Counted from the first letter of the stretch, positions 1,641 through 11,500 are shown. The stretch is DNA of 39,733 bases from Candidatus Udaeobacter sp. (GCA_035473115.1 DATION010000007.1:1-39733); one strand, 5' to 3'. Program-made: numbers and translations. The notes: a model not told the origin generated them from the letters alone.

Positions 1641-1669
1641 AATTTACCATATGATAAGCAATTTGTCAA
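1641..1669 (-). promoter_or_regulatory. sigma70 promoter for the hydroxylase gene
   Basis: TTGACA-17 nt-TAAATT with a TG extended -10. Confidence 0.65.
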
Positions 1670-1722
1670 TAGGAATTCAAAAACAGCTTTTATGCTAGCA
1701 AGACCTACTTTGGCATATAATA

Positions 1723-1751
1723 TTGACTTTTATCTATTTTTTGTATATATT
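1723..1751 (+). promoter_or_regulatory. sigma70 promoter for 1771-2208
   Basis: TTGACT-17 nt-TATATT. Confidence 0.65.
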
Positions 1752-1770
1752 CCCGTGCAGGAGGATAATC

Positions 1771-2208
1771 ATGAAAAGGCTAATGCTAGTCATTATCATT
1801 TTGCTTTTGCTGCTAGCGGCAGCTTTGTGGTGGTTCTGGTTCAGAAACAAATGGGTGGAATTGTCACCTACTGACTCAGACCTGGGCGCTTCGGTCCATG
1901 TGGTCCGGGACTACAGCCTCAAGCCGAATGCTCCGCGTAGTCAGTGGGGGTTATGGGTTGTTCTACAGAACCTTGGCCCTGAACCTGTCAATGTGGCTTT
2001 TCGAACGGCAACGAACCATGTTGAGTACAAAAGATCGGTTCAGATCGGGATTGGAGAGATGGTTGCGCTGCGAGTTGGCCCAGAGGATGTGGACTTCCTG
2101 TTTCGGCGAATAAAGCCGGAAGATCCGGAGCCGCTGATGCCGAAGCATGTCGGTCGGTTTACCACGACCGAACTGGAGAAGAAGCATCCGCTGGTTTCTC
2201 GGCTCTGA
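1771..2208 (+). CDS. Hypothetical N-terminally membrane-anchored protein (145 aa)
   Basis: AGGAGG RBS before ATG 1771; hydrophobic N-terminus MKRLMLVIIILLLLLAAALWW. Confidence 0.75.
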   Translation: MKRLMLVIIILLLLLAAALWWFWFRNKWVELSPTDSDLGASVHVVRDYSLKPNAPRSQWGLWVVLQNLGPEPVNVAFRTATNHVEYKRSVQIGIGEMVALRVGPEDVDFLFRRIKPEDPEPLMPKHVGRFTTTELEKKHPLVSRL

Positions 2209-2405
2209 ATATCTCTTCGCGGTTCCTTCGTGGTACAGCAAATATTTGCAGACGCTGTTGTAAAGGCGTCGGCAGATTGATCAGAGAGCGCTTGTCTTTA
2301 TGTTTGAGACGAGCCGCCAAATTCAATTAGGAAAATTCGTAATTGGTGAGGCGAGATTGTTTTCTGGGTGTTTTTATTTTTTATTAATTAAGTGCATTTT
2401 TTAAT

Positions 2406-2516
2406 AACTAAAAAAGCTTTTCTATATCAGAAAAGCTTTTTTAAATTTGTTTTATACATCCGAGCTCACACAACCTAACAAATTAATTATTAAGTTGTGC
2501 GAACGGCTCGGATGTG
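2406..2516. repeat. 111-bp two-hairpin element, copy 2
   Basis: Direct repeat of 682-792, 3' of pyrE. Confidence 0.95.
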
Positions 2517-2586
2517 ATTGTCTGTTTGAGTTGCAAGCTGGTAGCGGGCAGCGCCGTTATCTGGGTATGCGATCGCCGCACATAAT

Positions 2587-3252
2587 TTATTGACTGGCAG
2601 TGAGTATTTCCCAGTTGTCTTTGGGTCGCAGCGCTTGCGAACCTGCTTTGCATAAAGGGCAATCGTTCGGCTTCCAGACAGTCATATCTCTGTTTACCAG
2701 ACTGATTATTTCTCTGCCGTCCGCCTCTTGCTGTCCGGACCAATTCATTAGAGCAGCTACTAAAGGTACTACTTCAGCTCCTTCTTTCATTACCGCATCT
2801 ACTGTCAACTTTACACTGCCAGCAGTAGTGATCGCGTCTTCACAAATTATAACCAGCGGTCTATTGTTTGATAACAGTTGACGCTCCACTTTGTTGAAGA
2901 CCATTTGCCTGAGGTCTCCATCGCCAACTTTTTCCGGAGAAGCCCAGAAACATGGTTGTCCGGTTAGTTGTATTTTCCGGGCACACATGAATTTTGCCAG
3001 CTGTGTGGCTCCGTTTTTAGGGCCAACCACTCCTTTTATTTTGTGGATATCAGTCTTTTGGACAGCAAGCTCAAAAAGATCGCAAGCTGCTTGATATAAC
3101 AATGATCTGTCAATCAATCTGCTGTTAAAATAGCATCCGGAGTGGTTGCCGGATGTAAGCAGCGCGTGTGGGTTATTAGGATTTCCATCATGTATCCATA
3201 AAGCGCCACAGCGCGAATATCTATCAGGCCAGACTGTTCCATTTCCAAACAT
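2587..3252 (-). CDS. pyrE: Orotate phosphoribosyltransferase-like type I PRTase
   Basis: LLTSGNHSGCYFN motif; PRPP-binding loop ICEDAITTAGSV; AGGAGG RBS; divergent from pyrF. Confidence 0.8.
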   Translation of the reverse strand: MFGNGTVWPDRYSRCGALWIHDGNPNNPHALLTSGNHSGCYFNSRLIDRSLLYQAACDLFELAVQKTDIHKIKGVVGPKNGATQLAKFMCARKIQLTGQPCFWASPEKVGDGDLRQMVFNKVERQLLSNNRPLVIICEDAITTAGSVKLTVDAVMKEGAEVVPLVAALMNWSGQQEADGREIISLVNRDMTVWKPNDCPLCKAGSQALRPKDNWEILTASQ

Positions 3253-3395
3253 TTGGTCCTCCTGTTTTTTAGGAATGATTTGGTTGCTAAAAGAATACTA
3301 ACTTAAAATTTAATTAAGGTAAAGACTAGTAATTGACATATTATATATAGTTGCCGTAGGATTATCGTACAACCAAGAGAGGCAGGTAGATCAAT

Positions 3396-4163
3396 ATGGC
3401 AATGATGACTCGGCAAGAAGCTGCTCAGAGAATTTATGTAGCCCTGGATGTTCCCAAAATCGAGCTCGCTGCGGAAGCTGTTGACGAGCTCGGCAACCGG
3501 GTCGGTGGCTACAAGATTGGGCTCGAACTCGGAACGTCCAAAGGCTGGAGCACGGTTCACAATGCGCTTACAGCGCAGGTTCAAGTTTCTGTGTTTGGAG
3601 ACATCAAGATCAAGGATATCCCCAAGACTGCTGGCAGAACGGCAGCTGCACTCATCAGAGGTAATCCCGGTTTCACTTTTTTCAATGTCCATGCCGATGG
3701 CGGCGAGGCGATGATTCAGGCGGCCAGGGAGCAGTCCGAAGCAGTGGCAGTTTCCGAAGGACGGCAGCGTCCCAAGCTGCTCGCCGTGACTGTTCTCACC
3801 AGCCTGGACGAGAGTGATCTCAGTAAGCAGGGCATCGCAGGTTCCACTGCCGATCAAGTCATTCGTCTAGGCAAGCTTGCAATCAGCGCGGGAGCAGACG
3901 GTCTGGTCTGTTCGGCGCGCGAGGTCATGCTGCTCAGGCAAGCTATCGGTCCGGAGCCAATCCTGATGGTGCCGGGCCTTCGGTTGCCAGGTTCAAGCAC
4001 GCGCGATCAAAAGCGTGTGATGGAACCGGGTGAGTTGGTTCGCATCGACCCCAAGGCTTTACTGGTCATTGGGAGCGACATCATGGACAAGTCTCCGGGT
4101 CAGCGTCTGGCTGCCCTAGAGCGAGTGATCGACAATATTATTTTCGGTATCCAACCGGAGTAA
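3396..4163 (+). CDS. pyrF: Orotidine-5'-phosphate decarboxylase
   Basis: VALD, GYKIG, DIKIKDIPKT (DxKxxDIPxT), VTVLTS, PGLR and DQKRV motifs. Confidence 0.92.
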   Translation: MAMMTRQEAAQRIYVALDVPKIELAAEAVDELGNRVGGYKIGLELGTSKGWSTVHNALTAQVQVSVFGDIKIKDIPKTAGRTAAALIRGNPGFTFFNVHADGGEAMIQAAREQSEAVAVSEGRQRPKLLAVTVLTSLDESDLSKQGIAGSTADQVIRLGKLAISAGADGLVCSAREVMLLRQAIGPEPILMVPGLRLPGSSTRDQKRVMEPGELVRIDPKALLVIGSDIMDKSPGQRLAALERVIDNIIFGIQPE

Positions 4164-4369: not shown

Positions 4370-4738
4370 TTATTTTCCAGCTTTACAGGCATCTCTATCT
4401 GCAGCAGCTTGTTGCTTGGCAGCTTTTAAGACTGCTTTAGCTTCTTCGATTGCAGATCTTTTGTTGGTTCTGGCGGTCTGTACAGCAGCTTTACGTTCTA
4501 CTTTATCAGTTAATTGTCTAGCGGCAGTAACTTCAATTCTAAATCTGGCTTCAGCGTTATTTGCTGCATCGGTAAATACGGCTTCGGCTTCTGCAACAGT
4601 AGCGTCGTGAACTTTTTTGCATTCAGCGGCTGTAGCCTTAGGAGTTACAGCTGTATTTGTGCCGGCAGCCAAAGAGGCCATAGGCAAAGCCATTGTTAGT
4701 ACGGTTGCAAGTAGTAGAGAACTCATTAGTTTTTTCAT
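4370..4738 (-). CDS. Secreted Ala/Lys-rich helical protein
   Basis: Signal-peptide-like N-terminus (…LPMASLA-A); Ala-rich coiled-coil body; two Cys. Confidence 0.8.
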   Translation of the reverse strand: MKKLMSSLLLATVLTMALPMASLAAGTNTAVTPKATAAECKKVHDATVAEAEAVFTDAANNAEARFRIEVTAARQLTDKVERKAAVQTARTNKRSAIEEAKAVLKAAKQQAAADRDACKAGK

Positions 4739-4907
4739 AGATAAATTGGTTATTGGTTTTAGTAAGCTGTCGACCTTTTTTTAAGTTGACTCATTATAGC
4801 ACTATATAAAATAGCGTCAAATGATTTTTTACTGCCTTTTACAGATCTGTAATATATAACAATAAAACACTATATTAGTAGTGTTTTATTGTTTTTTTCG
4901 TACCTAT

Positions 4908-5525
4908 TTATTTTTTCGGATAAAAATAAAGTACACCGCTGATAATGGCTGCGAAAAAACACCAGACCGAAGTAAAATTAATGGCGTAGAAATACCAGGC
5001 TATAAGAGAAAAAATCAGTAACAGTACAGAAAATAATTTTATTATTGTCTTGCTGGAAATAGCACCAACGCCAACAGTGAAGAGAATATATAAATAGCCA
5101 AACAGAGTAGGGTAGGGTGCTAGGTTCGGATAAAAAAGGCATTGATTAATTATTTGCGCCGCTTCCGGTTTTTGTAAAAAAGCGGCATAAAGTATTATTC
5201 CAACTACGGCTCCGCCTAGACAAAATATAGAAATAATAAGTTGCCTAACTTTATTAGTCTCCAGCATTCGTGCTGCCAAAGGAATATAGATTGGCCAAAG
5301 CAGCAGAGCAAAAAATAAATAGATATCTGTCAGAGGTAGAGTGTATGGCCAGTGATTTTTTAGAGATAACCAGATGAGCCCTTCTGCAAATTGTTGGATG
5401 GCAAATAAAAGCGGCACTGCCATTAACATCCAAGCCTTTTTATTTTTGGTTTTGGCTAGAGTGGCTATACCCACAAAACCAATGGCGGCGCTGGCAGAAA
5501 AACTGGCGGTTGCAGAAAAGCACAT
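4908..5525 (-). CDS. Multi-pass membrane protein, DUF6629-like
   Basis: N-terminal MCFSATASF and C-terminal SVWCFFAA signatures; several hydrophobic segments. Confidence 0.7.
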   Translation of the reverse strand: MCFSATASFSASAAIGFVGIATLAKTKNKKAWMLMAVPLLFAIQQFAEGLIWLSLKNHWPYTLPLTDIYLFFALLLWPIYIPLAARMLETNKVRQLIISIFCLGGAVVGIILYAAFLQKPEAAQIINQCLFYPNLAPYPTLFGYLYILFTVGVGAISSKTIIKLFSVLLLIFSLIAWYFYAINFTSVWCFFAAIISGVLYFYPKK

Positions 5526-5716
5526 AAGTAAAATCGTACGTAATAAAATTTAAGCACTTGTTTATTATAGCACTCATTATCAAATTTTACTTCCTTAGTA
5601 TGTTTAAACTTTAACTGGCGGTAACATTTACGGACATTAACCATTTATCTTTAATATTGACAGAATGAGCAATTAATACTATAAAGACCACACACAACCT
5701 CCCAAAGGAGAGTCTT

Positions 5717-6481
5717 ATGGCAAGTTCAAAGTGGCCGGTTGATCCAGTTCCTGTTTCCGAAAGCATCAGCAGCTTGGTACGGCGATCTACAGCAGTTTTT
5801 TGTAAAGCCGATGACTCTTTGATAGGTTATTTTGGCAGTGTTGTTGGCCCGATCGAGTTTTTTCTCAGATGCCTGCCAAAGAATTGTATGACCAAATTGG
5901 TTGTGCATTTCCAGGGGTTTGGGGAAGAAGTTGGTACTATGGTGGTGAACACTAGAGTACAGCTTTGGTCAGGTGAAAATATCGCTCGGCTCACTTTCGA
6001 TGACCCTCAACCGGATCTTAGGTGTCTGGGAGGAGGGCCGAATTTCTGGAGTCCGTTTATTATCGCCATTGCCTGTGCGCATGAAAACGCGCCGGTTTGT
6101 TTCCACAAAGATGGTGATGCTAGCAAGTTCATTTCACTTGCCAGCGATCTGTCTTTCATGCCTGTGGGTGTGGTAGAACTGCTGAAGCAGTATGAGAAGG
6201 ATATCATATACGATGCTCACAGTTTTGGTACCAAGGTTCAGCGCTCCGATGCTGGCAAGCAGATTTTGGCCTTTGGACTGCAGGCGTTGCCCAAGATACT
6301 GTCATATCTTGGGGCGAATCCACCAACAGAAGAAGAGGTGAGTCGCGCTTGGGCAAGCATTATCAGCCGTATCGCTGTTAGTCACAAGCTTCATAGCCCT
6401 CACAACCTGCTGCTTAACTTGTCAGCATGGACTGATTGGGCCAAGAATGTTATTTCTCCCGCTCCTGTTCAAGCGCTCTAA
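5717..6481 (+). CDS. Hypothetical protein (254 aa)
   Basis: Long ORF, AAAGGAG RBS, upstream TTGACA at 5657-5662, terminator downstream; no motif recognised. Confidence 0.75.
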   Translation: MASSKWPVDPVPVSESISSLVRRSTAVFCKADDSLIGYFGSVVGPIEFFLRCLPKNCMTKLVVHFQGFGEEVGTMVVNTRVQLWSGENIARLTFDDPQPDLRCLGGGPNFWSPFIIAIACAHENAPVCFHKDGDASKFISLASDLSFMPVGVVELLKQYEKDIIYDAHSFGTKVQRSDAGKQILAFGLQALPKILSYLGANPPTEEEVSRAWASIISRIAVSHKLHSPHNLLLNLSAWTDWAKNVISPAPVQAL

Positions 6482-6502
6482 ATACAGTTGAGCCTTGGGG
6501 AT

Positions 6503-6576
6503 AAAAAATAAGCCACTCTAACGTCACTATATTTTCATGATTTGAAAGTTTGGTGACGGGTGGCTTATTTTTTTTT
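6503..6576 (+). terminator. Extended hairpin terminator
   Basis: aaaataagccact/ggtggcttatttt outer stem with inner cgtcac/gtgacg stem, then a T run. Confidence 0.7.
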
Positions 6577-6703
6577 GGCAATACTTAAAAGCAAAAGATG
6601 TTGATTCGTATGCGTGAATCTTTTTTATATTTTTTATTTTGTTTGACAGTCTATATATTTTATAGGTAGCATAAAATAAGAAACCAAAAACAAGGATGGT
6701 ACA

Positions 6704-7351
6704 ATGTCGCGAAATAACAGAGCGCAGGTTTTACTGCTCGTATCATTTTTTCTGCTAAATATTTTTGGGCAGGCGCGAGCAGATAACAAGCCAGTTTTCA
6801 AACTGCCGCTTCCAGCTGGTTTCGCTTGGCGGGTTCATACTATGGTTGGCGGCAAGTGCGGCCGTAAATGTTATAACCGACATCATTCAGATAAGAAAAA
6901 CGGTTATTACGCAATTGACTTGAACCCCATAGTGAAATCCGGAAACGAAATAACATTGGTCGCCGATGGAGAAGAGGGGATGGTAGATGTTTTGGCTGCG
7001 GCTGATGGAATTATTATTGAAGCTGTCAGTGCACCTTGTCACAATCGTGGTCCGATTTGTAAAGTTGTCATTGACCATGGCAATGGTTACACAACTACGT
7101 ATTTGCATTTAGCCGAGAATAGTTTGGCAGTTGAAGTTGGAGACAAAGTTCGGCAAGGACAGGTAATAGCCGAGATGGGCAATACCGGTCCGTCAGATGG
7201 AACACATCTCCATTTCCAGGTAAGCTATAAGGGTGGCAGCAGATCTAATCTATCAGAGTTGAAAAGTATTACTTTAGAAGGCATTCGTTTATCAGATTTT
7301 CAAACCGGCTCTTTCTATATATCAACTAACGTTTCACCTCAACCTCTCTAA
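6704..7351 (+). CDS. Secreted M23 family metallopeptidase (peptidoglycan hydrolase)
   Basis: Signal peptide; H...YAID, YLHL, GNTGPSDGTHLHFQV zinc motifs. Confidence 0.9.
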   Translation: MSRNNRAQVLLLVSFFLLNIFGQARADNKPVFKLPLPAGFAWRVHTMVGGKCGRKCYNRHHSDKKNGYYAIDLNPIVKSGNEITLVADGEEGMVDVLAAADGIIIEAVSAPCHNRGPICKVVIDHGNGYTTTYLHLAENSLAVEVGDKVRQGQVIAEMGNTGPSDGTHLHFQVSYKGGSRSNLSELKSITLEGIRLSDFQTGSFYISTNVSPQPL

Positions 7352-7395
7352 TTTTTTGATGAAGAGAGTGTAAAGATAAATGTTAAAAACAACCC

Positions 7396-7414
7396 AGCTG
7401 GCCCAAAGCCAGCT
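7396..7414. terminator. Terminator hairpin between the convergent M23 and S9 genes
   Basis: agctggc-ccaaa-gccagct with T-rich flanks on both strands. Confidence 0.55.
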
Positions 7415-7442
7415 TTTCCATTTGAAAAGAAGTAATTATTTT

Positions 7443-7500
7443 TGCTTTTCGTCCTGCGATGTTTGTGGACTCATCAGTTTTGGTCTCACCAAAAGAAGCA
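7443..7500 (-). ncRNA. Type III hammerhead ribozyme
   Basis: Minus strand: UGCUU-C^-UUUUGGU gag ACCAAAA-CUGAUGA-GUCC acaaacaucgca GGAC-GAA-AAGCA; all core positions and stems I-III match the consensus. Confidence 0.9.
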
Positions 7501-7588
7501 CATTGGAGAGTGGCAAGACACTCTCCGGGCCGACGACTGAACTCATCCTTGCAGTCTCGCTCTTGGCGAAGCTATGAGTTTGTGTTGC

Positions 7589-9664
7589 CTAGTCCAGACT
7601 TTCCAGCCATTTCAGCAAGGCAGGTAAGTATTTGTACTGCCCCGGTGTTTTATAGCCATGGCCTTCACCAGGCAGAATTAGGCATACGACCTGTTTGCCC
7701 ATGGCAATAGCTTTGTAGCAGAAGTTAAGTGTCTCGTCAGTCGGAACCCTATTATCGGATCCTCCTGCGTCGAGAAACAGCGGAACGCTCAGCAGATCAA
7801 TGTGGTTTATCGGAGATCGGTCGTTCCACTTGTCGATGATTTCCTTCGGCCACTTGTCCGGATCTTTGTCTAGATCCGCAAATTTCATAAGGTCCTTGTA
7901 CCAGAGTCGAATGTTTCCGTTCTTGAGGGCGTTGATGAGATCAGAAATTCCAAAATCACTCCACCCGAACCCAAACTGGAAACTTTCGGTTATGCCGTCG
8001 ACCTGGCCTGGGAAGGTTAACGCGCGTAAGGTGTCATAACCCCCGCGGCTACCCCCGAACACTCCGATCTGTTTGTTTGGTACCTTGAGGTAATTAGCCA
8101 GCCATTTCCCGGCCTTCAGTGCATCAAGCGTTTCCATTCCTCCCAAATCACCATATCCCATAGTCTGGAATTTGATGCCAAAGTCTGTGGTACCTCTTGG
8201 AGCCGGACTCATTACATAATATCCGGCAGCGCACAGAATTTGGAAGTAGGTATTCCATCTGTTGAACCCACCGTAAAACGATAGGACCATGCCTTTTTTG
8301 TTGGCGCCGGTCTGTGGGTTTTTGGGAGAAAGGAGGTAGGCATGGAGTTGACCGTTTTTTTCTCCTTCGACTTCAGGCCTGTTCTCGCTTTTTGAGTCGG
8401 AAGCATCGAAGCTTACTTTTTGATAAGTACATTGCCGGAGTTGGTTTAGTAACTCCGGCGGATATCCACCGCGGTCAAAGACTTTGATCTGGCCGTCAGT
8501 GATGACAGCTTCTCGTTGGGTAAATGGATCATCCAGAGCACTTGTATAGAACCCAATTCTGCTCCCGCCGTAGTCGTCAATAGTAACTGTTCCAGCAAAT
8601 TCCTTGCTATCTACAACCTTGCCGTTTGTCCAGTCGATAGACATCAGGCTAGTCCGGAGAGGATTTCCCTCCAGGCCAATCACATATACCTTGCCGCTAG
8701 GTTGGCGGATAGCTATGGCGTCTTTCATGTTTTTGCCAGGTGGAGAAACCAGCCTGGTTTTACCACTCGTGAGGTCATATGCGTACACCAGAGTCTCGTC
8801 TGTATCCTCATCCGTAGCGAATAAAAAGTGAGACGCATCAGGCCACTCGTTGAGTGGATACATGTCGATCCGCTTTTTACTGGTATCACTAAGAACTCTC
8901 GGTTCTCCGCTGCCGTCCAAGGGAATGTAGATCAGGTTGTTTCTCTGACGGTCACTGTTAGCCACGAACTGAACTACGAGAGCTTTTCCATCAGGACGCC
9001 AAGCTGGTCCACCCCAGGTTAGTTTCATACTGGGAGGTGAGTCGCGGTACACAACCCGTTCGCTGTAGTTACTTAAGTCTAGAATATAAATAGCTCCTGA
9101 TGAAGCTTCGTCTTTGGCAGAGCGGCCAGTGTACACCAGAGATCGACGGTCCGGACTTACAGTCAAGCCGTATACGTAATACACACCCTCGCCGGTAATC
9201 TTACGCTCTTCTCCCGTTTTGAGGTCGAGAGCATAAAGTACTTTGTTCTCATCATTGACCTGGTCGGCCAACATGATGATCTCTCCGGGACGTTGCGGAT
9301 TACAGAATGCTCCGCCAAAGTTCCGTTTGGCAAAGTCGCGCGGAGAAATAATCCTCCCCTTGCTGAAATCGACCCGCTCTTCGCTGCGCGGATCGAATTT
9401 CACCATCATCAGCCGTTCTTGTTCTCCCTTGAGTTTGTAAAACATGGCTCCACAACCGATGTCCACGATTGGAGCGGTGTAGGGCCAGCCCTCGAGGTAG
9501 GCGGTGAGGTTGATCTCCCTGTTTCCTTTGAAATGGAAGATTTTATCCGGCGGCTTTCCTGTTGCTGCCGTGCTGGCAGTCGATTGCACTGGGTGGATGG
9601 AGCAGGCGGAAGCTAGCCCCAATACCCCTAACAACAACACTAACGCAAAATTCACTTTTCTCAT
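7589..9664 (-). CDS. S9 (prolyl oligopeptidase family) serine peptidase lipoprotein with a TolB-like beta-propeller
   Basis: ATG 9664 after AGGAGG; lipobox LASAC; GGSRGG nucleophile elbow, DNRV and GEGH triad motifs; SPDR/RPDG propeller repeats. Confidence 0.88.
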   Translation of the reverse strand: MRKVNFALVLLLGVLGLASACSIHPVQSTASTAATGKPPDKIFHFKGNREINLTAYLEGWPYTAPIVDIGCGAMFYKLKGEQERLMMVKFDPRSEERVDFSKGRIISPRDFAKRNFGGAFCNPQRPGEIIMLADQVNDENKVLYALDLKTGEERKITGEGVYYVYGLTVSPDRRSLVYTGRSAKDEASSGAIYILDLSNYSERVVYRDSPPSMKLTWGGPAWRPDGKALVVQFVANSDRQRNNLIYIPLDGSGEPRVLSDTSKKRIDMYPLNEWPDASHFLFATDEDTDETLVYAYDLTSGKTRLVSPPGKNMKDAIAIRQPSGKVYVIGLEGNPLRTSLMSIDWTNGKVVDSKEFAGTVTIDDYGGSRIGFYTSALDDPFTQREAVITDGQIKVFDRGGYPPELLNQLRQCTYQKVSFDASDSKSENRPEVEGEKNGQLHAYLLSPKNPQTGANKKGMVLSFYGGFNRWNTYFQILCAAGYYVMSPAPRGTTDFGIKFQTMGYGDLGGMETLDALKAGKWLANYLKVPNKQIGVFGGSRGGYDTLRALTFPGQVDGITESFQFGFGWSDFGISDLINALKNGNIRLWYKDLMKFADLDKDPDKWPKEIIDKWNDRSPINHIDLLSVPLFLDAGGSDNRVPTDETLNFCYKAIAMGKQVVCLILPGEGHGYKTPGQYKYLPALLKWLESLD

Positions 9665-9902
9665 TGCGATCCCTCCTGGGACATGTGTTACGTGGACTCT
9701 CCACGCAGAAGAACTAGATAGAACATTTCTTTCCAGCCTCCTTATTAACTTCAACAAAGTAAATTAGTTAAAATTAAAAAGAAAGCCAGAAGCTGAAATT
9801 GATTGTAAAAGAACAACGTTTTACACTAGCAAAAATTAAGCTTTGTGTCAATGAAAATCATAATTAAAATTTTTAGGATAAATAATTTTTAACAAACTAA
9901 AT

Positions 9903-9920
9903 ACCGCCATCGCTGGCGGT
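9903..9920 (-). terminator. Terminator hairpin downstream of the 9935-10232 RNA candidate
   Basis: accgcca-tcgc-tggcggt; T-rich tail on the minus strand. Confidence 0.55.
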
Positions 9921-9934
9921 AGTTTGTTGGAAAA

Positions 9935-10232
9935 GGAGCCGGTGGGTTATGTCCGGCAAATTTGTCACAAAATTATTTTGGCACCAAGAAGTGCTCTCGG
10001 CTACCTGGCTCGGAAACACCCGCCCTTCGGCTCTCACTATGTGACCTACACCTTACACCTACATAATTTTGTGGAACAACCCGGTTGTGGCTCAATGGCC
10101 AAGCGTGAAGCTAGTGTTTAAGTCACCCAACTTGATCAGAGATCAGGTGACCGTGTCCCGACAGAATACGAGCATAAGATCGACAGGGCCGATCCCATCT
10201 TGTTGCTCGCAATCAGAACACAACTTCATGCT
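9935..10232 (-). ncRNA. Candidate ~300-nt structured ncRNA, family unknown
   Basis: GC-rich intergenic tract with nested helices (gtgttctga/tcgggacac, gcgagca/tgctcgt, gtcacc/ggtgac, gagcc/ggctc, cacaaaattat/ataattttgtg); G-U pairs favour the minus strand. Confidence 0.6.
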
Positions 10233-10362
10233 AGAAATAAGTTCAATGAATAGTCCGGTAAGTGTCAAGTTGTAAAATTTATAGTCAGATAAGAATGGTC
10301 TTTTATATTTTTTTAAAATGATATATAATATGCTGACTAAATTAAAGTTAAGCAAATAAATT

Positions 10363-10713
10363 ATGCAGGACATTCAAGAAATTTTTAATCGCATGCAGGA
10401 GATTAAAAAGAAACAAAAAGATATCCGCAGCGCCTATAAGGAAGCTTTAGAGGCTTCTTTGGAGTACAAAGAAATTAACGACAAAATTAAAACTTTGAGA
10501 GAAAGAAAAAAACAGATTGAAAATGTGACCAAGGAATCTTTTTCCGGAGAGTTTACTAAATTAGATGATCTAAAGATAGATTTGGAGTCAGACAGCGTGA
10601 TGCTGAGTGATATTGCTCTGAATAAATTAATGAAAGGGGAGACCGTTCAGGTGGTGGATGAATATAACAATAGTTACGAACCTCTGTTTACCGTAAAGTT
10701 CAAAAAAACTTAA
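10363..10713 (+). CDS. Hypothetical coiled-coil protein
   Basis: 116-aa charged helical ORF with host-like codon style. Confidence 0.8.
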   Translation: MQDIQEIFNRMQEIKKKQKDIRSAYKEALEASLEYKEINDKIKTLRERKKQIENVTKESFSGEFTKLDDLKIDLESDSVMLSDIALNKLMKGETVQVVDEYNNSYEPLFTVKFKKT

Positions 10714-10721
10714 TCAGTTGA

Positions 10722-11183
10722 TTATTTCTTTTTATTAATCCGCAGCAGCTCGTTTTGAATTCTGTTTAAGTTTGTCCGTTCTTTCATTATGGCAAGCTCT
10801 TTGTCGTCTGCTGAAGAAAGTCCGAGATGGTTGTGGATTTTATCGAGCATGTTGATTATTTTGGTAACTTCATTTTCGGCTTGAATATTTATTTGTAAAT
10901 CAATCTCTTCACGCAGTTCATCTATTTCATTGGATCTTTTTTGTGATATCAGAACAATGATGCTGAGAAAAATAGCTTCCAGAGAAACAATGGTAGTTAA
11001 AAGTCCGTAGGGGAACGGGTCAAATGGTTTTAAATTTGGAATTAAGCCGGCATTGATAATTAGCCAGCTAGGGAAAAAGATAAAGTGAAAAATAAGAAAC
11101 CAGATACTACCAAAATAACCGGTTAAGAAATCAGCCAAGCGGCCGGTAAAGGTTTTATTTTTTTCTAATTTTGTTCTAAACAT
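10722..11183 (-). CDS. DUF1003 membrane protein
   Basis: FDPFPYGLLTTIVSLEAIFLSIIVLISQ signature. Confidence 0.88.
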   Translation of the reverse strand: MFRTKLEKNKTFTGRLADFLTGYFGSIWFLIFHFIFFPSWLIINAGLIPNLKPFDPFPYGLLTTIVSLEAIFLSIIVLISQKRSNEIDELREEIDLQINIQAENEVTKIINMLDKIHNHLGLSSADDKELAIMKERTNLNRIQNELLRINKKK

Positions 11184-11286
11184 ATGATTATTAATTATAC
11201 CAGATTAATTTTAGTAGGCAAATTATCGGTAGTTTATTTCTTTATTTGGTATAAAAGTTGGCGGTGGATAACTTTTGCTAATTATC

Positions 11287-11315
11287 TTGACGCAAGATTA
11301 TATCAGGTATATGAT
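11287..11315 (+). promoter_or_regulatory. sigma70 promoter for the candidate sRNA
   Basis: TTGACG-17 nt-TATGAT. Confidence 0.75.
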
Positions 11316-11321
11316 AAAAAT

Positions 11322-11437
11322 ATCAGAGAACTTAGTTCGATGGTAAAAGTAGCGGACCCCACAGCCGCCATCAAACCTCAACTAAACTTCTCTCCCACCC
11401 AGCAAAAGACGAACTTCGGTTCGTCTCTTAATTTTTT
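11322..11437 (+). ncRNA. Candidate ~115-nt sRNA
   Basis: Own promoter; rod agagaa/ttctct, ttagtt/aactaa, gatgg/ccatc, gcgg/ccgc; terminator agacgaac-TTCG-gttcgtct plus T run. Confidence 0.65.
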
Positions 11438-11453
11438 ATATTAAAGTTTTTAT

Positions 11454-11489
11454 AAACAAAAAATTCCGAATAATCGGAATTTTTTGTTT
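11454..11489. terminator. Bidirectional terminator 3' of hup
   Basis: aaacaaaaaattccga-ataa-tcggaattttttgttt. Confidence 0.8.
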
Positions 11490-11500
11490 TCTATTTTTTT

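Follow-up and report, generated by a model that had tools for sequence, protein, structure and literature searches.

Intergenic hammerhead ribozymes in bacteria and phages, mentioned in the original prediction, have been known by the hundreds since 2010–2011 (PMC3088659), and the kind of element analyzed here is therefore not new. Many of the bacterial hammerheads adjoin integrase or prophage genes. Tandem hammerheads in polycistronic RNAs of phages and prophages (Clostridium scindens, Azorhizobium caulinodans and Agrobacterium tumefaciens) have been proposed to cut the RNA at gene boundaries (PMC3088659). Processing of 3′ UTRs and of polycistronic RNAs has also been proposed for bacterial hammerheads and twisters, as roles that are described there as unproven (PMC6765202; PMC3088659). 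With the exception of glmS, what self-cleaving ribozymes do in bacteria has been called "largely elusive" (PMC6765202). Our literature search found nothing relevant that links hammerheads to Saccharibacteria or Patescibacteria.

The stretch of DNA analyzed in this work (39,733 nucleotides, hereafter the window) contains one hammerhead, in the intergenic region between the convergent S9 and M23 peptidase genes. When compared to described type III hammerheads (RF00008; PMC3088659), it has the same core, the G10.1-C11.1 and A15.1-U16.1 pairs, C17 and an open stem III, and like many type III elements of bacteria and phages it is intergenic (PMC3088659). In contrast to the many bacterial copies located next to integrase or prophage genes, the window element has no such neighbor, is single-copy and scores below the Rfam threshold. 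The role proposed for the tandem phage and prophage systems, a cut in the mRNA at a gene boundary, is also the one proposed here, but those systems form an array between genes, whereas in the window a single ribozyme ends a transcription unit.

The glmS ribozyme resides in a 5′ UTR, is metabolite-dependent and has a fold unrelated to the hammerhead. The window element would resemble it as a bacterial self-cleaving RNA inside an mRNA, with cleavage proposed to alter mRNA fate, but nothing in the window hammerhead points to ligand control. Viroid-like, retrozyme and satellite hammerheads, which belong to circular-RNA replication, come as two or more copies in tandem or in direct repeats that delimit an RNA of unit length, with an associated retroelement or repeat. 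The window has one copy, and no flanking repeats were found; as originally predicted, there is no retroelement among the annotated neighboring genes.

All the sequence features that the original prediction had listed for the hammerhead are present on the minus strand between 7500 and 7443 (Table 1). The element is 58 nt long, and its 11 invariant core positions (11/11) and 16 helix pairs (16/16) are intact, without decay. All three helices are fully Watson-Crick; loops cap stems I and II, and stem III is open.

Table 1. Position of the hammerhead, its parts and its surroundings in the window
Feature	Position	Strand	Remarks
Type III hammerhead ribozyme	7443..7500	minus	sequence reading, descriptor, RF00008, model R1, MFE fold
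Hammerhead stem III, 5 bp	UGCUU 7500-7496 / AAGCA 7447-7443	minus	contains A15.1-U16.1
Hammerhead C17	7495	minus	predicted cut 7495/7494
Hammerhead stem I, 7 bp	UUUUGGU 7494-7488 / ACCAAAA 7484-7478	minus	loop 1 GAG 7487-7485
Hammerhead core C3-A9, CUGAUGA	7477-7471	minus	
Hammerhead stem II, 4 bp	GUCC 7470-7467 / GGAC 7454-7451	minus	G10.1-C11.1 closing pair; loop 2, 12 nt, 7466-7455
Hammerhead G12-A14, GAA	7450-7448	minus	
S9 family (prolyl oligopeptidase-type) peptidase, 691 aa	7589..9664	minus	Pfam PF00326; mechanical ORF reaches 9757
8-bp GC-rich hairpin, GGAGAGUG ucuugc CACUCUCC	7505..7526	minus	ends 4 nt 5′ of the hammerhead
A/U-rich spacer, AAAAAUAAUUACUUCUUUUCAAAUGGAA	7415..7442	minus	28 nt, from hammerhead to terminator
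Intrinsic-terminator-like hairpin, 8 pairs	7414-7396, U-rich tail GGGUUGUUUU 7395-7386	minus	bidirectional, common to the convergent M23 gene
M23 peptidase gene	6704..7351	plus	Pfam PF01551; convergent with S9
Higher-GC accessory block	5528..10361		4.8 kb; 254-aa hypothetical gene, M23, hammerhead, S9

The MFE fold (ViennaRNA) was the hammerhead fold both for the isolated 58-mer and for the element inside the 221-nt 3′ UTR. The fold energies were ordinary (z = −0.27 for the 58-mer and −1.3 for the 221-nt UTR), and these z-scores are non-discriminating. Loops 1 and 2 of the window are GAG and ACAAACAUCGCA, whereas those of the compact family described below are GUGU and AAAA. A by-eye comparison of the window with three related loci (L243, L246 and L002) revealed no consistent pseudoknot pairing between loops 1 and 2. 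Fast cleavage at physiological Mg2+ needs a tertiary contact between these loops, for which the loop 1-U/loop 2-A contact put forward in the original prediction is a candidate. Because the loops are off the compact-family consensus and no consistent loop-loop pairing was found, such fast cleavage is not assured.

A strict descriptor, which asks for the core with both closing pairs (G10.1-C11.1 and A15.1-U16.1), for any base but G at N17 and for a minimum length of the stems, matched the 39.7-kb window exactly once, at 7500–7443. It yielded no match in 40 Mb of first-order-Markov sequence of the window composition, even when the minima were relaxed to I ≥4, II ≥3 and III ≥4, which is below the lengths observed in the window hammerhead. 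Chance is therefore not credible as the origin of the motif.

In the Rfam comparison, one of the checks proposed earlier, RF00008 (Hammerhead_3) aligned in permissive mode with the element from end to end. The score was 29.6 bits, under the gathering score of 48.5, and the E-value was 1e-4 with 221 nt searched and 0.0032 with 7 kb searched, which taken alone is marginal. At the gathering threshold four tRNAs and nothing else were retrieved from the window. When ten loci bearing compact-family hammerheads were scanned at the gathering threshold, with L124 as the sole viral locus among them, there was no Hammerhead_3 match either. Since these hammerheads also fall short, the RF00008 shortfall of the window says little; the sub-threshold score reflects the training set of the model and not the absence of a biological feature. 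The low scores also explain why the compact family is unannotated.

We built a covariance model, R1, from 25 other hammerheads, mostly from genomes of the candidate phyla radiation (CPR), and excluded the window from it. R1 scored the window hammerhead end to end at 53.8 bits, and the runner-up site in the window at 13.9 bits. A search for further copies had also been suggested. None was found elsewhere in the 39.7-kb window with R1 and filters off, but other CPR genomes do contain hammerheads. Companion Rfam motifs (RAGATH, DUF3800 RNAs and other ribozymes) were absent from 4500–11500.

When 596 Gb of genomes were queried with the 3′ half of the motif alone (CUGAUGAGUCC...GGACGAAAAGCA), one locus was retrieved, L002. 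The type III hammerhead in L002 is complete, with its own fully paired stem I, C17 and 5′ strand of stem III, and is followed by an A-rich tract and a terminator. A broader pattern with stems I and II left free retrieved at least 119 genome loci and 4 viral loci, and among the 124 loci examined with the descriptor, 32 contained a complete hammerhead. Most of these 32 loci carry the compact family, which is 51 nt long and whose consensus reads GCUU-C-CAUAACU-gugu-AGUUAUG-CUGAUGA-GUCC-aaaa-GGAC-GAA-AAGC. Its hosts are mostly Candidatus Saccharibacteria/Saccharimonadales, Taylorbacteria and related MAGs, and also Campbellbacteria. A metagenome scan for the stem I tip and core of the window retrieved L243 and L246, with the first hammerhead (HH1) UGGAU-U-UUCCGGU-GAG-ACCGGAA-CUGAUGA-GUCC-[20 nt]-GGAC-GAA-AUCCA, and also L244, L245 and L247, which are type II permutations with the stem I tip of the window.

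The compact family and the window hammerhead have in common a 7-bp stem I, a GUCC/GGAC stem II and a stem III of the form GCUUC...GAAAAGC; both have an upstream hairpin and are co-oriented with the upstream gene. They differ in loops 1 and 2 (GUGU and AAAA in the family, GAG and 12 nt in the window), in the distance to the hairpin (0–1 nt vs. 4 nt) and in what lies on the 3′ side, which is a terminator in the window and the start codon of the next gene in the phage compact copies. Closer to the window are the long-loop-2 variants, namely HH1 and the second hammerhead (HH2) of L243 and L246, and L002: as in the window, loop 1 has 3 nt, loop 2 is long (12–20 nt), a GC-rich hairpin lies upstream and the spacer is A-rich, and an intrinsic terminator follows in L243-HH2, L246-HH2 and L002. 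L243-HH1 also shares the GGU-GAG-ACC tip of stem I with the window. The genes upstream of these variants, however, encode unrelated hypothetical proteins, and in L243 and L246 two hammerheads bracket a two-gene cassette, whereas the window has one hammerhead.

In the 25-sequence family alignment, changes on both sides were observed for 13 of the 16 pairs and the signal collapsed in slid controls, with the caveat that the members had been chosen by a descriptor that demands pairing. Between the window and L243-HH1, four pairs show compensatory changes, two of them in stem I and two in stem III, and none is disrupted; these four pairs of L243/L246 occupy positions that the search pattern left unspecified. 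Core, topology, the independent R1 model and the compensatory changes in relatives thus agree that the window carries a complete type III hammerhead, as had been claimed. We consider it very improbable that the resemblance to a hammerhead arose by chance or that the sequence is inactive, with an RNA that does not cleave. The score under the Rfam gathering threshold, the ordinary folding energy and the non-consensus loops would fit such a sequence, but the empty 40 Mb of random sequence, the 53.8 bits from R1, the compensatory changes, the module context shared with other family members and the equally low Rfam scores of the compact-family hammerheads in ten loci argue against it.

Most CPR members of the family lie 30–130 nt 3′ of the stop codon of a co-oriented gene. 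The flanking genes are mutually unrelated, most of them being housekeeping genes or small ORFs for hypothetical proteins, and a common gene family beside the hammerheads was accordingly rejected. No integrase or phage domain was found beside family hammerheads among 25 of the 48 matched Pfam families. L030 and L069 are syntenic, and their hammerheads differ in stem II and in the loop that caps it. One hammerhead, in L158 (Campbellbacteria), was found when RNase Y loci were sampled without bias (1.22 Mb), hence these elements are sparse in genomes. Up to five copies are found per locus (L026, 2; L044, 2; L118, 5), and tandem-like arrays are seen at the related loci L118, L212, L208 and L245.

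Several loci showed features of their own. In L118 (uncultured bacterium KR5_bin-306) five type III hammerheads (1648–3536 and 6772–6822) lie within 8 kb and bracket small ORFs without Pfam or PHROG match; they adjoin a DUF3800 gene (5001–5657), a DUF3800-IX RNA (4909–4977) and a TrmB-type HTH regulator, and a 29-nt insertion lengthens stem II in two of the five. L245 (Ga0193738_1006544) has five type II hammerheads ∼350 nt apart on one strand (2178–3535), each ending a few nt 5′ of the AUG of a small ORF; they carry the GGU-GAG-ACC tip, and one copy has a CUGAAGA core. A RAGATH-10 RNA (L030 1223–1309, 48.2 bits, gathering score 41.2) is located ∼510 nt upstream of the Saccharibacteria hammerhead L030:1819–1872. 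RAGATH-10 and the DUF3800 gene with its RNA are known to mark the surroundings of hammerheads and twisters. In Taylorbacteria, Campbellbacteria and related bacteria, conservation reaches past the hammerhead (L044 6110–6225 and 7470–7590, L118 1600–1720, L158 8020–8135): a GAAAG...CUUUCC hairpin and a second, covarying hairpin lie upstream, and the motif GUUCUUUAAAA follows directly 3′ of the hammerhead. CUGUUCUUUACAA in L243/L246 and ACUUCUUUUCAAAU in the window (7431–7418) weakly resemble this motif. A second type III family, with stem I UAGGU-uua-ACCUA, stem II GUUGG/CCAAC and a 7-nt loop, is present in Clostridia (L013, L039 and L079) and in the viral contig L124.

In the window the hammerhead is co-oriented with the S9 gene, whose N-terminus, MRKVNFALVLLLGVLGLASAC (...LGLASAC), resembles a lipoprotein signal, and begins 88 nt after the stop codon (7591–7589), between the 8-bp hairpin and the terminator. 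The predicted placement in the 3′ UTR of a lipoprotein-type peptidase gene is therefore borne out. A-rich stretches like the window spacer are also located 3′ of the ribozyme in L002, L243, L246 and the phage copies. No sigma-70-like promoter was predicted between the S9 stop codon and the ribozyme; CPR promoters are poorly known, which leaves room for an independent transcript.

The functional product could also be a small RNA, either the ∼105-nt 5′-OH fragment released by cleavage or an independent transcript that starts after the 8-bp hairpin. A structured 5′ end and the terminator would delimit such a fragment, and GUUCUUUAAAA, located on the 3′ side of the hammerhead, is common to L044, L118 and L158 and has a weak counterpart in L243 and the window. 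We regard this possibility as improbable, however, because an upstream promoter-like site is absent, the spacer is short, A/U-rich and unconserved among the window, L002 and L243-HH2, there is no match to an Rfam family, and in the phage copies the corresponding downstream part is just a leader for the gene that follows.

An exact match to the 23-mer CUGAUGAGUCCAAAAGGACGAAA was present in 36 IMG/VR contigs (L207–L242), in which R1 detected 63 hammerheads located between genes, often 3–6 and at most 5–6 per contig (e.g., L212 8491–12976, L208 3318–6045 and L210 594–2925). BLAST of the compact module and of the window element against 50,697 GenBank phage records gave no match. Abundant in IMG/VR and without a GenBank phage match, the compact family is therefore a feature of uncultivated viruses. 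The layout in these phages is highly regular: a GC-rich hairpin of 10–12 bp, 0–1 nt, the 51-nt hammerhead, an A-rich leader of ∼20–25 nt and the AUG of the next gene.

We scored an upstream hairpin as present when the 32 nt directly 5′ of the ribozyme folded at ≤ −8 kcal/mol. It was found at 76% of the viral copies, when compared with 9% of local control windows (Mann-Whitney p ∼1e-20), and at 44% of the copies in the CPR/metagenome set vs. 23% of controls (p ∼0.04). Because the hairpin is enriched upstream of the family, the 8-bp hairpin of the window belongs to a conserved composite module. The order hairpin, hammerhead, A-rich spacer, intrinsic terminator is shared by the window, L002, L243-HH2 and L246-HH2, and the genes 5′ of this sub-variant outside the window are unrelated hypothetical genes.

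The window thus has a stable hairpin directly 5′ of stem III, with 8 bp and a 4-nt spacer. It departs from the layout of 51 nt, GUGU/AAAA loops and a start codon within ∼25 nt, with its 58 nt, a terminator and a convergent gene, and is therefore a variant, nearest to L243/L246/L002. From sequence and layout, the window element is best classified as a putative variant of a composite processing module made of a hairpin and a compact type III hammerhead. A wider reading is that hairpin and compact hammerhead form an undescribed two-part cassette that cuts phage and CPR mRNAs at gene boundaries and was co-opted after the acquired S9 gene. We put this forward tentatively, as a possible rather than a probable reading.

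RNase Y, whose gene lies at a distance of 4.5 kb to the ribozyme, shares 84% identity with its counterpart in a Candidatus Magasanikbacteria MAG and 71–82% with those of other Patescibacteria. The reduced-genome host named in the original prediction is therefore a CPR bacterium, Candidatus Magasanikbacteria-like. At ten loci labeled 'uncultured Gammaproteobacteria' (L126, L129, L138–L142, L146, L152 and L156) RNase Y is 50–83% identical to that of the window, and some share local synteny; these loci look like mis-assigned Patescibacteria bins, and L002, with the same label, is probably one too.

The hammerhead lies in a block with a GC content of 0.45–0.48, compared with 0.36–0.39 outside. The closest relatives keep the RNase Y/HU neighborhood without S9, M23, the 254-aa hypothetical gene and the hammerhead. 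The genes that flank the block, hyp_10363 and DUF6629, are 1.2 kb apart in L126 vs. 4.8 kb in the window; L126 carries an HU-like paralogue where the window has the accessory block. Block 5528–10361 is thus accessory and was probably acquired horizontally. With the whole block absent from the closest relatives, neither orthologous conservation nor orthologous evidence of selection was found at the exact hammerhead site. A second assembly, L001, was set aside as conservation evidence, being 100% identical to the window and hence uninformative.

In a search of 5.8 billion proteins the closest S9 homologues were 41–47% identical and came from Gram-negative-type, non-CPR contexts; a scan of the genome collection for S9 relatives found none. 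These non-CPR contexts suggest an inter-phylum transfer of the gene into the CPR genome. The gap downstream of S9 was 8–91 nt in all homologue loci, and no hammerhead was found near the S9 homologues in the two loci with DNA. The S9 homologues being without a hammerhead, the ribozyme did not simply arrive together with the S9 gene. No integrase, transposase, phage structural gene or retroelement was found among the annotated neighboring genes, and no bracketing, flanking or terminal repeats were found around the block. A phage or mobile origin of the block was rejected as a candidate, since PHROGs gave generic M23 matches alone and terminal repeats were absent.

These observations bear on whether the hammerhead, although real and possibly still active, is a passenger, that is, a phage or mobile remnant that came in with the acquired block or was inserted into it, with no selected role in S9 expression. 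Viral contigs carry the family in abundance, often with 3–6 copies each, and the window copy is inside a higher-GC block absent from relatives, lacks the downstream gene that usually follows the phage module and has loops that diverge from the family consensus; accessory-neighborhood markers (RAGATH-10, and DUF3800 with DUF3800-IX RNA) are also found at related loci. On the other hand, the 11 core positions and 16 pairs are intact without decay, the hairpin beside the ribozyme persists, as does the shared orientation with S9, neither terminal repeats nor genes for an integrase, a transposase or a phage structural protein were found in the block, and S9 homologues without a hammerhead indicate that it was not simply brought by S9. 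On balance we find such a passenger rather unlikely.

We favor, as somewhat probable, the reading that the element is a functional type III hammerhead, transcribed within the 3′ UTR of the minus-strand S9 mRNA, that would set the 3′ end of this mRNA. Transcription of S9 would continue across the hairpin and the ribozyme in the direction of the terminator, and the RNA would fold into the three-helix junction and self-cleave after C17, between 7495 and 7494. The predicted 5′ product is an S9 mRNA that ends in the hairpin 7526–7505 followed by a 10-nt tail, AAUGUGCUUC, with a 2′,3′-cyclic phosphate. The predicted 3′ product, ∼105 nt with a 5′-OH, would consist of the ribozyme body, the A-rich spacer and the intrinsic terminator, and would be released. 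Both cleavage products may have structured ends, by analogy with the phage modules.

Because the window has no gene downstream, a ribozyme-set 3′ end would be the main consequence: the S9 3′ end, and hence mRNA stability, would be defined by the ribozyme rather than by the terminator. The analysis shows the motif, its statistical significance, its family membership, the covariation, the context with its module architecture and the enrichment of the upstream hairpin, whereas we infer that the site is transcribed, that the RNA is catalytic and that mRNA stability is affected, in either direction. A cleavage that defines the 3′ end or destabilizes the mRNA would agree with the family context and with published, unproven proposals (PMC6765202).

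Three features appear to be undescribed in the literature searched: the occurrence of the compact family in CPR bacteria, the hairpin that abuts it upstream, and the hairpin-hammerhead-terminator variant. The window locus offers a clean single-copy case, with one gene, a hairpin, a hammerhead and a terminator, and no phage genes nearby. The side results outweigh this single locus: the compact family is widespread in CPR bacteria and uncultivated phages, is missed by the Rfam threshold and exposes an annotation gap in reduced-genome bacteria. Together with its usual upstream hairpin in phages, it suggests a reusable natural "insulated cut site". If the two-part cassette reading is true, (i) cleavage would leave the upstream RNA with a nuclease-resistant hairpin at its 3′ end and place the folded ribozyme at the start of the downstream RNA; and (ii) the 3′ end of the S9 mRNA would be set independently of the terminator in a Magasanikbacteria-like genome.
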